From contig JBBSXW010000068.1 of assembly GCA_038045665.1 (NCBI GenBank), positions 3,251-51,922 on the forward strand: a DNA stretch of 48,672 nt. Reading direction: 5' to 3'. Each line of letters starts with the position of its first letter. Position 1 is the stretch's first letter. The position numbers and the translations under genes were made by a program. The notes below the pieces were generated by a model, which saw only the letters and a list, made by a program, of their open reading frames with translations, did no database searches and was not told the DNA's origin. Below are positions 18,802-45,843 of this stretch, one piece after another. This stretch comes from Nanobdellota archaeon (GTDB lineage Archaea > Nanobdellota > Nanobdellia > SCGC-AAA011-G17 > JACPIM01).

Positions 18802-20142
18802 ATGGTTTTAGAGAAATTAAGCACCTCATTAAAAAGCATCTTAAAAAAGATAGCCAGAGCAGGATTCGTCGACAAAGCGCTTATAGAAGAGCTCATAAAA
18901 GAAATACAAAAATCCCTCATTCATGCAGATGTAAACATTAAGTTAGTTTTTGAATTAACCAAGCAAATCAAAGAAAGGGCATTAAACGAAAAACCCCCTG
19001 CAGCCATAACACAAAGAGAATATCTTATAAAGGTGGTCTATGAAGAGCTAGTAAAATTCCTAGGTGAAGAAAAGAAAGAGTTAAACCTAAAACAAAAACC
19101 TACTAAAATTCTTTTGTTGGGTCTTTTCGGTTCAGGGAAAACAACAACCGCAGCAAAAATAGCAAATTACTACAAAAAACGCGGGAAAAAAATCGCATTA
19201 ATCGGCTTAGACGTTCATAGACCAGCAGCTATAGCACAGCTTGAACAACTAGGGGGAAAAATAAACATTCCTGTATTTTCTGATAAAAAAGAAAAAGATC
19301 CTGTAAAAATTTACAAAAAATTTCAAGATGAATACAAAAAGTTTGATATGTTGTTAATAGACACAGCAGGAAGAGACGCTTTAAGCAATGACCTGATTGA
19401 AGAAATTAAAGAATTAAACAGGGCAATAAATCCACAAGAAAAAATACTAGTCGTTAGTGCAGATCTAGGTCAAGCAGCAGAGAGACAGGCAAAAAAACTT
19501 CACGACACTGTGAATATTACCGGAGTTATAATAACAAAGCTAGACGGTACCGCAAGGGGCGGCGGTTCATTGACAGCCTGTGCCATTTCAGGAGCACCTA
19601 TAAAGTTCATAGGCATCGGAGAAAAGATAGATGACCTAGAAGAATTCAACCCAAAAGGATTCGTTGGTCGCTTACTTGGAATGGGTGATTTAGAAGCTCT
19701 GCTTGAAAAAGCAAAAGAAGCAATAAGCGAAGAGCTGGCAGAAGATCTAGGTAAGAAATTTTTGAAAGGAGAATTTAATTTCTTGGACTTATATGAACAA
19801 ATGCAAGCAATGAGCAAGATGGGTCCTTTAACTAAAGTCATTGATATGATACCTGGAATGGGCGGAGTTAAGATTCCTAAAGAGATGCTTGAGGGGCAGG
19901 AAGACAAAATGAAGAAATGGAAATTTATTTTGCAATCACTTACGAGAGAAGAGCTTGAAAATCCTGAAATTTTAACAAGCAGTCGGATAGAGAGAGTAGC
20001 GAAGGGAAGCGGGACAACCACTCATGAAGTAAGAGAATTGTTAAAGCAATACAAACAATCTAAAAAATTAATGAAAATGATGAAAGGTCAAGATCCAGAA
20101 AAATTAATGAAACGGTTTAAAGGAAAAATTCCTGGGTTTTAA
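18802..20142 (+). CDS. srp54: Signal recognition particle protein SRP54
   Basis: NG domain (GLFGSGKTTTAAK, DTAGRD, TKLDGTARGG) plus Met-rich M domain (MIPGMGG...MMKG). Confidence 0.92.
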   Translation: MVLEKLSTSLKSILKKIARAGFVDKALIEELIKEIQKSLIHADVNIKLVFELTKQIKERALNEKPPAAITQREYLIKVVYEELVKFLGEEKKELNLKQKPTKILLLGLFGSGKTTTAAKIANYYKKRGKKIALIGLDVHRPAAIAQLEQLGGKINIPVFSDKKEKDPVKIYKKFQDEYKKFDMLLIDTAGRDALSNDLIEEIKELNRAINPQEKILVVSADLGQAAERQAKKLHDTVNITGVIITKLDGTARGGGSLTACAISGAPIKFIGIGEKIDDLEEFNPKGFVGRLLGMGDLEALLEKAKEAISEELAEDLGKKFLKGEFNFLDLYEQMQAMSKMGPLTKVIDMIPGMGGVKIPKEMLEGQEDKMKKWKFILQSLTREELENPEILTSSRIERVAKGSGTTTHEVRELLKQYKQSKKLMKMMKGQDPEKLMKRFKGKIPGF

Positions 20143-21763: not shown

Positions 21764-21804
21764 CGCCACCTTATTCTTTTCATAAGCCCCGTGCTGTGGT
21801 TAGC

Positions 21805-21927
21805 AGCCCCGTAGAAATTTCTGCGGAATGTAGTGGCCAATCACAATGCCCTTTGGAGGCATTAACCCAGGTTCGAATATAGGAGTGGGCCCTTATCAAC
21901 CCTTGTGCGAAAGTCCTGGCGGGGCTA
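21805..21927 (+). tRNA. tRNA-Gln(UUG) with two non-canonical BHB introns (21815-21828; 21878-21913)
   Basis: Spliced model: AGCCCCG-TA-GTGT-AGTGGCCAA-TCAC-A-ATGCC-CTTTGGA-GGCAT-TAAC-CCAGG-TTCGAAT-CCTGG-CGGGGCT-A (73 nt). Intron 1 (14 nt, position 10/11): central helix CCGT/GCGG, bulges AGA and AAT. Intron 2 (36 nt, position 59/60): central helix TTCG/CGAA, bulges AAT and AGT, flanked by the T-stem. Confidence 0.8.
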
Positions 21928-24900: not shown

Positions 24901-24936
24901 AAATGGTTATAATTGCTATATTTAAAACAACTTAAA

Positions 24937-25497
24937 ATGGCTCAAATAACAAAAAAACGCAAAAAAAGCTGGGTCAAGATAATTGCTCCCAGAGAATTCA
25001 GAAACGCAGAGTTAGGAGAAAGCCTCGTTTATTCTCCTCAAGATCTAATAGGCAAGAGACTGAATGTTAATCTGTCAACGTTAATAGGGGATATGCGGAA
25101 ACAAAACACAAATATTCTTTTTAAAATTGAAGAGATAAAGGGAAGTCAAGCAATAGCAAACATTATCTCTTTCGAAATTTTGCCTGCTCACATTAAACGT
25201 ATGGTGCGAACATTAAAAGACAGGATAGATGACTCGTTCGTGGTTTCCAGCAAAGACCATCCAAAGATTCGCATAAAGCCCTTTGTGTTAACTAAGGCTA
25301 AAACCAGCAACTCAATATTAACTTTAATAAGAAAGAGAACAAGAGAAGAAGTAACAAAAATCGCATCAAAAAGCACATTTGCAGAATTCACAATAGAAGT
25401 CATATCCGGGCAATTAAAAAAACAACTAAAGCAAGAGTTGAATAAGATATACCCTATTACTATTTTTGAAATAAGAAAAATCGAACTGCTTAAATAG
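24937..25497 (+). CDS. rps3ae: Ribosomal protein S3Ae (eS1)
   Basis: MAQITKKRKKSWVKIIAP... from ATG 24937. The listed TTG 24913 start is unlikely. Confidence 0.88.
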   Translation: MAQITKKRKKSWVKIIAPREFRNAELGESLVYSPQDLIGKRLNVNLSTLIGDMRKQNTNILFKIEEIKGSQAIANIISFEILPAHIKRMVRTLKDRIDDSFVVSSKDHPKIRIKPFVLTKAKTSNSILTLIRKRTREEVTKIASKSTFAEFTIEVISGQLKKQLKQELNKIYPITIFEIRKIELLK

Positions 25498-25534
25498 ATA
25501 ATTTTTTAAATATCCATATTAGTTTCTTTCTTAA

Positions 25535-25700
25535 GCCACCGTAGCTCAGACTACTTTTGTGGTAGGAGCAATGGTAGAGCAAATCTTCAGAGAAGAGCTT
25601 TTCTGCCTTGTATGGGAAAGAAGCCTTGAGTGAGCAGAGAAACTTGAAAGAAATTTCTATTTCACTCTCTAGGTCGGGGGTTCAAATCCCTTCGGTGGCT
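25535..25700 (+). tRNA. tRNA-Thr(UGU) candidate with four BHB introns (25550-25571, 25583-25602, 25613-25632, 25638-25669)
   Basis: Spliced model (72 nt): GCCACCG-TA-GCTC-AGTGGTA-GAGC-A-ACTGC-CTTGTAA-GCAGT-AGGTC-GGGGG-TTCAAAT-CCCTT-CGGTGGC-T.
- Intron 15/16: helix GCTC/GAGC, bulges AGA/AAT, inner helix CTAC/GTAG.
- Intron 27/28: outer helix GGTA/TGCC, central helix GAGC/GCTT, bulges AAA/TTC, inner helix TCTTC/GAAGA.
- Intron 37/38 (canonical): central helix CTTG/TGAG, bulges TAT/TGA.
- Intron 42/43: helix GAGC/ACTC (one mismatch), bulges AGA/TCT, inner helix GAAA/TTTC.
The A27-U43 pair exists only after both flanking introns are removed. Confidence 0.65.
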
Positions 25701-25702
25701 TA

Positions 25703-26329
25703 TCATTTCCTCAATACAAAAACTAAATTCTTTCCAAAAATATTAGATTCCAAAATTCCGAATCCAGTTTTTCTTACAAATTTTTTCAACTCAAAATAAT
25801 CAAATAAATGAACATTCCTGAAATAAACCTTATCTCCAATTTTCCAAGGCATTCGTATATTTTTTCTTCTAAAAAGAAACCGTAATTGTAATTTATTCCA
25901 TACCGTCAAAAGCAATATTCCTTTTTTCTTCAAAACCCTATTCATTTCACTTAAAGCTTTCTTACTATCTTTATCATCAGTAACGTGATGCAAAGACGCC
26001 ACACTCAACACATAATCAAACTCTCTATCTTTAAAAGGCAATCTAAGCATATCGGCCCTGATTAATTTAATTTTAACATTATTTTTCTGCACGTATTCTT
26101 TAGCCTTCTTCAACATATTCTTCGAAAAATCAACTCCATAACATTCAAACCCATTTTTGGCAAAGGGTATCAAATTCCTCGCATTTCCGCATCCTATCTC
26201 TAAGATCTTGCCTTTTTTTGGTTTATACTTTTCCAAGAATTCATAAACTGGCTTAAACTTCATCTGCCTAAAATTATGCCATTGCTCAGCTATGTTATCC
26301 CAAACTTCTTCTTGGTTCATGTTTAACAA
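25703..26329 (-). CDS. Class I SAM-dependent methyltransferase
   Basis: Motif I ILEIGCGNARNL, motif II-like CYGVDFS, post-I acidic residue; about 200 aa (type 11-like). Confidence 0.8.
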   Translation of the reverse strand: MLNMNQEEVWDNIAEQWHNFRQMKFKPVYEFLEKYKPKKGKILEIGCGNARNLIPFAKNGFECYGVDFSKNMLKKAKEYVQKNNVKIKLIRADMLRLPFKDREFDYVLSVASLHHVTDDKDSKKALSEMNRVLKKKGILLLTVWNKLQLRFLFRRKNIRMPWKIGDKVYFRNVHLFDYFELKKFVRKTGFGILESNIFGKNLVFVLRK

Positions 26330-27287: not shown

Positions 27288-27403
27288 GGGCCCGTAGTCT
27301 AGAACATAGTGGACAATAGCTATGACGTCGCCTTGAAAGGTTTATTTTTTTAAACTTTGGGCACACGTGGCGGAGGTCGCGGGTGCAAATCCTGCCGGGC
27401 CCA
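27288..27403 (+). tRNA. tRNA-Val(GAC) candidate with two BHB introns (27303-27316; 27336-27364, the latter inside the anticodon)
   Basis: Spliced model (73 nt): GGGCCCG-TA-GTCT-AGTAGCTA-TGAC-G-TCGCC-TTGACGT-GGCGG-AGGTC-GCGGG-TGCAAAT-CCTGC-CGGGCCC-A.
- D-loop intron (14 nt): helix GTCT/GGAC, bulges AGA/AAT.
- Anticodon intron (29 nt, position 34/35): central helix GCCT/GGGC, bulges TGA/ACA, 8-bp inner helix AAGGTTTA/TAAACTTT.
The unspliced loop reads TTGAAAG and mimics Phe(GAA), but the canonical 37/38 BHB does not fold. Confidence 0.55.
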
Positions 27404-27451
27404 TTTCCTCAATACAAAAAATTTAAATATCCGATAGTAGTAACGAAAAAA

Positions 27452-28378
27452 ATGAAAACCAGCCTTTATCACAATAATAGGCAAAGAGCTTCTCACTATG
27501 TAAGTATTAAAAAAAATCGTGAAACAAGGATTAGAAAGAAATTATTTAAAGAGCCTGAACGTGGTGGATTAAGACCGGATATAAATATAGATACATCAAG
27601 CATAGACGATTTCATAGAAAAAGCAAGGGCAACACTACCAGTTAAACATGCAGACCTATTTATTGACACATCTGGAATATTTGGAGTTGATGTAGTTAGA
27701 GAAAATAACAATGGTAATATTGCGCTAGAATCTTTGTTTGATTTTTACCAGAACCTAATTGAATATGCTAATGACCCAGGGTGGAGTGTATTAACTTTAG
27801 AGTTATATGATCAATATACAAAATTAGCACAATTTTATAGTGGAGAATTATTCAACAGGAAAAATGTTTTTATAATTAAAGAAGTTTTAGATGAGATTAA
27901 ACGAACTCTTAATATAGTAAAAAATCAAGTAAATAAAAGTGATTGCAAAAAATATGCGAGAAAATTTACAAAACCAATAGAAAATATATATTTTGCTGCT
28001 GAAGAAAATGAAAATATGACTAAATGGTTGGAGACAGATCCTCTATCTGATATTATTTATAGTGTGCTACCAACAATGACCCCGGGGGGATCATTAAGCA
28101 GAACAGATAGAAGGTTAATAGCTATCCCTCTAGCACGCAGTCTTAGAGATGGAAGGGAAAAGGTTATCCTTACAAAAGATAGAGGAATTCGCGAGGCTTT
28201 AAAAGTTTTAAGTCTCCATGTTACTAATGAAAATATTGTTAGTCAACTTGAATTGCATGCTCCGCCAGAAGGATTTAAACAAGTAACTATAAGTACAGCA
28301 GGCTTACGGTTTGATTTAGAAAGCAGGCTTTATTTATACGCTACCAGCCACAAATACCATAATTTCTTCAATAAGTAA
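27452..28378 (+). CDS. PIN-domain-like protein (putative ribonuclease) with basic N-terminal extension
   Basis: The start is moved to ATG 27452 because the listed 27383 start overlaps tRNA-Val. Four acidic PIN-like positions are present in order: LFIDTSG, IIKEVLDEI, SRTDRRLIA, ILTKDRGI. Confidence 0.4.
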   Translation: MKTSLYHNNRQRASHYVSIKKNRETRIRKKLFKEPERGGLRPDINIDTSSIDDFIEKARATLPVKHADLFIDTSGIFGVDVVRENNNGNIALESLFDFYQNLIEYANDPGWSVLTLELYDQYTKLAQFYSGELFNRKNVFIIKEVLDEIKRTLNIVKNQVNKSDCKKYARKFTKPIENIYFAAEENENMTKWLETDPLSDIIYSVLPTMTPGGSLSRTDRRLIAIPLARSLRDGREKVILTKDRGIREALKVLSLHVTNENIVSQLELHAPPEGFKQVTISTAGLRFDLESRLYLYATSHKYHNFFNK

Positions 28379-45741: not shown

Positions 45742-45843
45742 GCCCTCGTAGTTTAGGCTGGATATTATATAAACCAGTAAGAATGCGACCTTGCGGATTT
45801 TAGCGAAAAGGTTGTGACCGAGGTTCAAATCCTCGCGAGGGCG
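45742..45843 (+). tRNA. tRNA-Arg(GCG) with two BHB introns (45764-45779; 45797-45808)
   Basis: Spliced model (74 nt): GCCCTCG-TA-GTTT-AGGCTGGATA-GAAT-G-CGACC-TTGCGGA-GGTTG-TGAC-CGAGG-TTCAAAT-CCTCG-CGAGGGC-G.
- D-loop intron (16 nt): helix CTGG/CCAG, bulges ATA/TAA.
- Canonical 37/38 mini-intron (12 nt): helix TTGC/GCGA, bulges GGA/AAA. Confidence 0.72.

Follow-up and report, generated by a model that had tools for sequence, protein, structure and literature searches.

Can a tRNA gene be interrupted so often that one of its five exons is only 5 nt long and still encode a functional tRNA? This question is raised by a 166-nt segment within a stretch of archaeal DNA of 48,672 nt (48.7 kb), which was analyzed over its full length and is referred to here as the window. 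A sequence-only reading had proposed that the segment is a gene for tRNA-Thr(UGU), whose 72-nt cloverleaf appears once four introns of 22, 20, 20, and 32 nt have been taken out. We found these introns, with the proposed lengths and coordinates, matched in the sequence, and twelve orthologous genes back the model; the 72 nt that remain form a perfect cloverleaf with the anticodon UGU (Table 1). On comparative grounds, we consider it highly probable that a DPANN archaeon has in this segment a functional tRNA-Thr(UGU) gene whose transcript is spliced in cis.

The window has a G+C content of 34% and encodes the archaeal proteins eIF2alpha, GINS51, PAC2, Rad51/RadA, S3Ae, S8e, S15, TruD, and SRP54 as well as synthetases of both classes, I and II. 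Woesearchaeota/Nanoarchaeota assemblies contain the closest counterparts of its S3Ae and RecJ/GAN proteins, and the same two proteins are found on contigs from Hainich groundwater. Judged by sequence, the host is a Woesearchaeota/Nanoarchaeota-like DPANN archaeon of the Hainich groundwater.

The tRNA-Thr gene is housed in a 205-nt gap between the S3Ae gene and a convergent methyltransferase gene. Directly 3' of the S3Ae stop codon lies an A/T-rich, TATA-like box. The sequence ATAGATAAT(T/C)TTTTAAA(T/G)A recurs at equal spacing 5' of the orthologous tRNA genes in L001, L034, and L041, and L040 carries the near variant ATAGTTAAATTTTTAAAGA (L numbers designate the sequences compared with the window). 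The box is read as the putative promoter of the gene. The 3' end of the gene reads TAGGTCGGGGGTTCAAATCCCTTCGGTGGCT and comprises the variable loop, the T arm, and the complementary acceptor strand, while CCA is not encoded. Features of tRNA-Thr identity include, besides the anticodon UGU, the pairs G1-C72, C2-G71, and C3-G70 and the discriminator U73, which were invariant in all 12 orthologs. Neither ARAGORN nor Rfam (at the gathering threshold and at E<=10) reported a tRNA in the raw 48.7-kb window. This silence is explained by the introns, which interrupt the genes, and not by an absence of genes.

Table 1. Coordinates of the tRNA genes, their exons and introns, and associated features. In the bulge-helix-bulge (BHB) motifs, bulges are in parentheses with a caret at the cut; "central" gives the pairs formed in the 4-bp central helix.
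Feature	Position	Strand	Length	Remarks
S3Ae gene (window)	24913-25497			stop codon 25495-25497
A/T-rich TATA-like box TTTTTTAAATAT	25502-25513	+		22-33 nt 5' of the mature end; read from the sequence
tRNA-Thr(UGU) gene (window)	25535-25700	+	166 nt	4 BHB introns, 5 exons
Exon 1 (GCCACCGTAGCTCAG)	25535-25549	+		acceptor 5' strand, U8 A9, D-stem 5' strand, A14 G15
Intron 1, 15/16 (D-loop)	25550-25571	+	22 nt	GCTC(AG^A)CTACT..GGTAG GAGC(AA^T); central GCTC/GAGC 4/4, inner CTACT/GGTAG 5 bp, outer 0
Exon 2 (TGGTAGAGCAA)	25572-25582	+		D-loop remainder, D-stem 3' strand, A26, A27
Intron 2, 27/28	25583-25602	+	20 nt	ggta GAGC(AA^A)TCTTC aga GAAGA GCTT(TT^C)tgcc; central 4/4, inner 5, outer 4 bp
Exon 3 (CTGCCTTGTA)	25603-25612	+		anticodon-stem 5' strand C28-C31, loop C32-A37 with UGU
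Intron 3, 37/38 (canonical)	25613-25632	+	20 nt	CTTG(TA^T)GGG..CCT TGAG(TG^A); central CTTG/TGAG 4/4, inner GGG/CCT 3, outer 8 bp unspliced
Exon 4 (micro-exon AGCAG)	25633-25637	+	5 nt	A38, G39-G42
Intron 4, 42/43	25638-25669	+	32 nt	GAGC(AG^A)GAAA..TTTC ACTC(TC^T); central GAGC/ACTC 3/4, inner GAAA/TTTC 4, outer 1 bp
Exon 5	25670-25700	+		U43, variable loop AGGUC, T arm, acceptor 3' strand, discriminator U73
Methyltransferase gene (window)	25703-26329	-		convergent
tRNA-Thr ortholog, L016				0 introns
tRNA-Thr ortholog, L019				1 intron: 37/38
tRNA-Thr orthologs, L001/L027/L028, L021, L030/L031				1 intron: 15/16
tRNA-Thr orthologs, L032/L033, L040				1 intron: 27/28
tRNA-Thr ortholog, L014/L029				2 introns: 15/16, 37/38
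tRNA-Thr orthologs, L034/L035, L038				3 introns: 27/28, 37/38, 42/43
tRNA-Thr gene of the window				4 introns: 15/16, 27/28, 37/38, 42/43
tRNA-Thr ortholog, L036	2668-2848	-	181 nt	5 introns: 15/16, 27/28, 37/38, 42/43, 59/60 (T-loop)
tRNA-Thr ortholog, L041	4522-4731	+	210 nt	5 introns: 15/16, 27/28, 37/38, 42/43, 59/60 (T-loop)
Partial 5'-end copy of tRNA-Gln(UUG), AGCCCCGT	21785-21792			~20 nt upstream of the gene
tRNA-Gln(UUG) gene (window)	21805-21927	+		two non-canonical BHB introns
tRNA-Gln(UUG) intron, 10/11	21815-21828	+	14 nt	central 4/4
tRNA-Gln(UUG) intron, 59/60 (T-loop)	21878-21913	+	36 nt	central 4/4, outer 5
tRNA-Gln ortholog, L001	2603-2701
tRNA-Val(GAC)-like gene (window)	27288-27403	+
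tRNA-Val(GAC)-like intron, 34/35 (inside the anticodon)	27336-27364	+	29 nt	central 4/4, inner 8 bp
GTG-start ORF (window)	27383-28378			overlaps the 3' end of the tRNA-Val(GAC)-like gene
tRNA-Val ortholog, L001	7361-7436			intron-less
tRNA-Arg(GCG) gene (window)	45742-45843	+		two introns
tRNA-Arg(GCG) intron, D-loop	45764-45779	+	16 nt
tRNA-Arg(GCG) intron, 37/38 (canonical)	45797-45808	+	12 nt	central 4/4, outer 7 bp
LAGLIDADG match, L032	4575-5207			clear
LAGLIDADG match, L036	3216-3800			weak
LAGLIDADG match, L039	5387-6112			faint
SRP54 gene (window)	18802-20142		446 aa	uninterrupted
SRP54 gene, L001	1-613		1031 aa	with LAGLIDADG intein

The introns were evaluated with a coded BHB geometry, in which a central helix of 4 bp is bordered by one 3-nt bulge per strand and each bulge is cut behind its second base. 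Introns 1 to 3 show exactly this arrangement of opposed bulges around a complete central helix, in agreement with the claim of three good motifs. Intron 2 is a full hBHBh' motif, with the outer (GGTA/TGCC), central (GAGC/GCTT), and inner (TCTTC/GAAGA) helices just as claimed. The central helix of intron 3 includes two G·U pairs. Its outer helix is the anticodon stem, which has 4 bp of its own and reaches 8 bp in the precursor (window 25599-25641), where the UUUU that closes intron 2 pairs with the AGAA that opens intron 4. No such lengthening is seen in the orthologs, where the outer helix of the intron measures 4 to 5 bp. Motifs of such quality are rare in the window: among 2,283,636 site pairs tested on its + strand, the quality of intron 2 was matched by 3 motifs, that of intron 3 by 26, that of intron 1 by 233, and that of intron 4 by 4682. 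Comparison of introns 1 to 4 by eye revealed no convincing sequence similarity among them.

We searched for orthologs through synteny (S15, RecJ/GAN, S3Ae, tRNA, methyltransferase) and two DNA-pattern scans. The homolog search with S3Ae yielded 5 proteins only, and the one with RecJ/GAN was much richer. The orthologous tRNA-Thr(UGU) gene was recovered from twelve other lineages of Woesearchaeota/Nanoarchaeota assemblies. In addition, the window gene itself was present, identical base for base, in three further independent assemblies (L005-L007). A metagenome pattern scan for genes with a D-loop intron found four loci and no further multi-intron copy. The comparison with orthologs, which the sequence-only reading had named as a check, showed the same intron sites, colinear exons, and covariation in support of the model. 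The L001 ortholog occupies the same place in the S15-RecJ/GAN-S3Ae-tRNA-methyltransferase order and has the D-loop intron as its sole interruption; window exons 2 to 5 align colinearly with GAGCATCTGCCTTGTAAGCAGAAGGTT, which is continuous in L001. The intron-less gene of L016 scored 75.7 bits with the Rfam tRNA model and was called Thr(tgt) by ARAGORN. Thus, what the window gene yields upon intron removal is a canonical cloverleaf that is colinear with intron-less homologs.

At the other end of the series are two five-intron tRNA-Thr(UGU) genes outside the window, in L036 and L041, each of which encodes a 72-nt tRNA; the L036 gene is inverted relative to S3Ae. The AGCAG micro-exon, which had been predicted at 25633-25637 and is present there, recurs in identical form between the 37/38 and 42/43 introns of L041, L036, L038, and L034. 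The homologs of introns 2 to 4 in L034/L035, L038, L036, and L041 differ in sequence while their pairing is kept. The central helix has all four pairs in every homolog of the 15/16 intron (L036, L041, L014, L001, L021, and L030) and of the 27/28 intron (L041, L036, L038, L034, L032, and L040). The inner helix of the latter reads TCTTC/GAAGA in the window as compared to TCTTT/GAAGA in L036 and L041. The 37/38 intron of L041 is very similar to that of the window, and its counterparts in L036, L038, L034, L014, and L019 are shorter, at 12 to 14 nt. As judged from this distribution, introns have evidently been gained and lost piecemeal in the lineage, with the orthologs holding 0 to 5 of them at five fixed sites.

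The exon boundaries were supported independently of the BHB motifs. The spliced 72-mer is identical at 63 to 70 of 72 positions to five orthologous mature sequences of 72 nt, and at 65 of 72 to L016. A blind global alignment of the window gene to intron-less L016, made with no BHB input, returned five blocks and four gaps over gap-open penalties from -5 to -12, and the AGCAG micro-exon was lost only at -16. When the 12 spliced orthologs were aligned on the cloverleaf, 100% of 252 cells were paired, and 9 pairs showed compensatory changes. None of 500 shuffles reached these values, and slid controls were paired at 28 to 60%. The central helices of the introns gave a similar picture: 110 of the 112 pairs formed in the 28 introns of 13 genes, as opposed to 36 to 48 when the 3' site was slid by 1 to 3 nt. 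In the 42/43 intron, the central helix begins with a pair that is C-G in some of the genes and G-C in others.

These statistics also bear on how far the gene could be something else. A chance resemblance or an assembly artifact, with no gene at the locus, could call on the silence of ARAGORN and Rfam on the raw sequence and on the permissiveness of ARAGORN toward artificially spliced candidates, as the program accepted many arbitrarily spliced versions of the Arg locus as tRNAs. Because ARAGORN does not discriminate among spliced candidates, orthologs were used as evidence instead. Syntenic orthologs with conserved exons occur in more than ten independent assemblies, the gene is identical in four, and the covariation of both the cloverleaf and the BHB motifs is strong. 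We thus give almost no credence to an artifact, and the comparative data appear effectively to refute it. It is likewise very improbable that the gene is real but spliced at other junctions. Models with three introns or fewer must omit AGCAG, which destroys the anticodon stem, and they arise in the L016 alignment solely at the gap-open penalty of -16. A subtler variant shifts the cuts by one base and gives U27-A43, the pair found in L001 and L016. This pair is also Watson-Crick, it is preferred by the blind L016 alignment, and the ligated product alone cannot tell apart sliding junctions of equal sequence. The pair 27-43 spans the junctions of introns 2 and 4, and in the 12 sequences it is A-U in 7, U-A in 3, and G-C in 2. 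The sequence-only reading had used A27-U43 as a consistency check, and the check is valid: the standard rule applied at both introns gives A27 and U43, and a standard junction at one intron combined with a shifted one at the other leads to an A·A or U·U mismatch. The shifted cuts break the rule of cutting after the second bulge base, which correctly yields every other junction in 13 genes. By the same reasoning, the shift would create G27·A43 mismatches in L036 and L041. The one-base-shifted junctions were rejected, as the cleavage rule is validated across the orthologs.

More weight belongs to the possibility that the window holds a decaying or inactivated copy, in which introns 1 to 3 are spliceable, a mismatch blocks intron 4, and another locus supplies tRNA-Thr(UGU). 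The single mismatch announced for the central helix of the 42/43 intron was found as C25635·A25664, and a G-to-A change relative to L041 produces it. In the orthologs, the corresponding helices are perfect: GAGC/GCTC in L041, CAGC/GCTG in L036 and L038, and CAGC/GTTG in L034. Intron 4 is alone among the 28 introns in having three of four central pairs with no compensating outer helix, since the only other such central helix (L036 59/60) is accompanied by an outer helix of 5 bp. The modeled energy of its BHB is unfavorable (+5.5 to +6.3 kcal/mol) and the worst of the 28. The motif is rivaled by a 7-bp helix, GAGUGAG/UUCACUC, of -10.6 kcal/mol and by another, seemingly stricter BHB, cut after 25634 on the 5' side and before 25669 on the 3' side, with a complete central helix, 3 inner pairs, and 4 outer pairs. 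The alternative cuts were rejected, as they would give a defective 70-nt product that lacks two bases and has a broken anticodon stem. Against decay, all 72 exon positions still fit a perfect cloverleaf, and the sequence is the same in four independent assemblies. A second, simpler tRNA-Thr(UGU) gene, which might lie beyond the 48.7 kb of the window, would also be out of keeping with small DPANN genomes, which usually have one gene per tRNA. Furthermore, the 42/43 BHB is marginal in energy in all five lineages that have it (-1.4 to +3.5 kcal/mol outside the window) and is conserved nonetheless. We therefore regard the intron 4 BHB as a putative relaxed, enzyme-stabilized motif rather than a defect, and decay of the gene as unlikely. 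Archaeal endonucleases of broad specificity tolerate relaxed BHB motifs (PMC5829648, PMC4090602), and intron 4 would fit the relaxed HBh' motif only if the EndA of the host has such specificity.

With the window gene taken as functional, its expression can be outlined. Transcription from the A/T-rich TATA-type promoter, ~25-30 nt upstream, would produce a precursor of roughly 166 nt. EndA would cut every 3-nt bulge of the four BHBs behind its second base, making eight cuts in total; the five exons would be joined by an RtcB-type ligase, and CCA would be added later. We infer these steps and their order from sequence features. No match to EndA or RtcB was found among the 30 ORFs scanned in the 48.7-kb window. 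DPANN lineages including Woesearchaeota have EndA variants with an L3 loop, which have been linked to more disrupted tRNA genes (Kaneta et al. 2018, PMC5829648).

The order of removal is constrained by the geometry. G25632 is both the final base of intron 3 and the first central base of the intron 4 BHB. Because the central helix of intron 4 uses this base, intron 4 is probably removed before intron 3: the helix has three of four pairs as long as intron 3 is present and two of four after its removal, and in the orthologs the 42/43 helix has 4/4 with the 37/38 intron present versus 3/4 without it. The shared base also covaries with its pairing partner. If intron 4 leaves first, a free AGCAG pentamer need never exist. 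A second overlap sets the anticodon stem against the outer helix of intron 2. Because the helices of introns 2 and 3 share bases, the four motifs cannot form simultaneously. The minimum free energy (MFE) fold of the whole precursor did not reproduce the BHBs, as the intron 2 outer helix competes with the intron 3 helices; such a fold is uninformative for a motif recognized by an enzyme.

How exceptional is this gene? The sequence-only reading had put the number of introns described per tRNA gene at up to three and had asked for a literature check. This holds for the reviews and the tRNAscan-SE 2.0 paper, which state three as the maximum per archaeal tRNA gene (PMC4033280, PMC8450103), and tRNA genes of red algae and nucleomorphs also have up to three (PMC3728597, PMC4090602). 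It does not hold for Supplementary Data 4 of Valentin-Alvarado et al. 2024 (PMC11291895), which includes four-intron tRNA genes of the Asgard lineages Freyarchaeia and Atabeyarchaeia. Four introns were both predicted and observed in each of Freyarchaeia Arg-TCT and Ile2-CAT, and four were observed in each of Freyarchaeia Leu-GAG and Atabeyarchaeia Trp-CCA. Because of these entries, four introns per tRNA gene are rare but not unprecedented. Our full-text literature searches on four or five introns returned no claim in a main text, and we found no earlier report of four-intron tRNA genes in DPANN, of an exon as short as 5 nt, or of a tRNA gene with five introns.

The Asgard genes resemble that of the window in having four introns at mostly non-canonical sites, in genomes whose tRNA genes are mostly interrupted and only partly detected by tRNAscan-SE (PMC11291895). 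They differ in superphylum and isoacceptor, and no entry has five introns, in contrast to L036 and L041. Their internal exons measure 7 to 22 nt (Arg-TCT and Ile2-CAT, with the columns read as four starts followed by four ends), as compared to 5 nt in the window. In Thermoproteales (Pyrobaculum, Thermofilum, and Caldivirga; Sugahara 2008 and Fujishima 2010, via PMC4033280, PMC4090602, and PMC8450103), genes likewise have several introns, some so near each other that ordered splicing is needed, and intron content varies between close relatives. Their maximum is three, however, and they are hyperthermophilic Crenarchaeota with an (alpha-beta)2 EndA, whereas the window derives from a low-G+C groundwater DPANN archaeon; a 5-nt exon was not found described in these three sources. 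The multi-intron tRNA genes of Cyanidioschyzon merolae and Guillardia theta, for which ordered removal was shown by RT-PCR (PMC3728597, PMC4090602), are nuclear and nucleomorph genes, some of them circularly permuted. The split and tri-split tRNAs of Nanoarchaeum equitans and Caldivirga maquilingensis share BHB-compatible breaks and reassembly by EndA and a ligase, but their parts come from separate loci and are joined in trans, while the five exons of the window gene are contiguous, in order, and on one strand. Thus, the tRNA-Thr gene of the window is an extreme multi-intron BHB tRNA gene.

Three more tRNA genes of the window are interrupted by BHB introns, some of them non-canonical, and all three were missed by ARAGORN and Rfam. 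The tRNA-Gln(UUG) gene is preceded by a partial copy of its own 5' end. Its L001 ortholog, which ARAGORN mislabels as Leu(aag), seems to have a D-arm insertion instead of these introns. The tRNA-Val(GAC)-like gene, the ortholog of an intron-less L001 gene, contains a further D-arm insertion of ~12 nt, and its T-loop, TGCAAAT, has a G in place of the near-universal U55. The start assigned to the GTG-start ORF is probably wrong because it overlaps the 3' end of this gene. The third gene, for tRNA-Arg(GCG), combines an intron in the D-loop with one at the canonical site.

Matches to LAGLIDADG homing endonucleases were seen near some of the orthologous loci. In L032 and L036, the ORF is a direct neighbor of the tRNA-Thr gene within the interval from S3Ae to the methyltransferase. 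No tRNA-Thr gene was found in L039, and its ORF lies downstream of S3Ae, past a shikimate dehydrogenase gene. The L032 ORF is flanked by the complementary sequences AAAATTCAC ... GTGAATTTT and preceded by a fragment resembling a tRNA 5' end, CCAGCCGTAG. A mobile element is one possible reading of it, and the leftover of an intron that carried an ORF is another. No ORF of this kind is present in the window. A LAGLIDADG intein is also present in the SRP54 of L001, while the SRP54 of the window is uninterrupted.

Together, the data raise the documented intron load of a DPANN tRNA gene to four, and to five in close relatives, where L036 and L041 exceed any tRNA gene that we found in the literature. 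The recognition motifs of the 37/38 and 42/43 introns overlap by one base around the conserved 5-nt exon. We lean toward the view that the cis-spliced tRNA genes of this Woesearchaeota/Nanoarchaeota clade are more fragmented than any others seen to date, with 0 to 5 introns, overlapping motifs, and an obligatory order of 42/43 before 37/38. If this is true, the endonuclease-ligase system of the clade would have to cope with eight to ten cuts per 72-nt RNA. The 5-nt exon between overlapping BHBs offers a testable case for ordered splicing and for the minimum substrate of EndA and RtcB, and the series of orthologs with 0, 1, 2, 3, 4, and 5 introns at one locus constitutes a record of intron gain and loss. 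The tRNAs that DPANN genomes seem to lack have been suggested to be probably encoded by disrupted genes that escaped detection (PMC5829648). Because ARAGORN and Rfam missed all four tRNA genes of the 48.7-kb window, tRNAs are probably heavily under-counted in the inventories of such genomes, and the inferences on completeness and auxotrophy drawn from these inventories probably suffer with them. The 'missing tRNAs' of DPANN assemblies would be explained if most of the tRNA genes in these genomes are alike.
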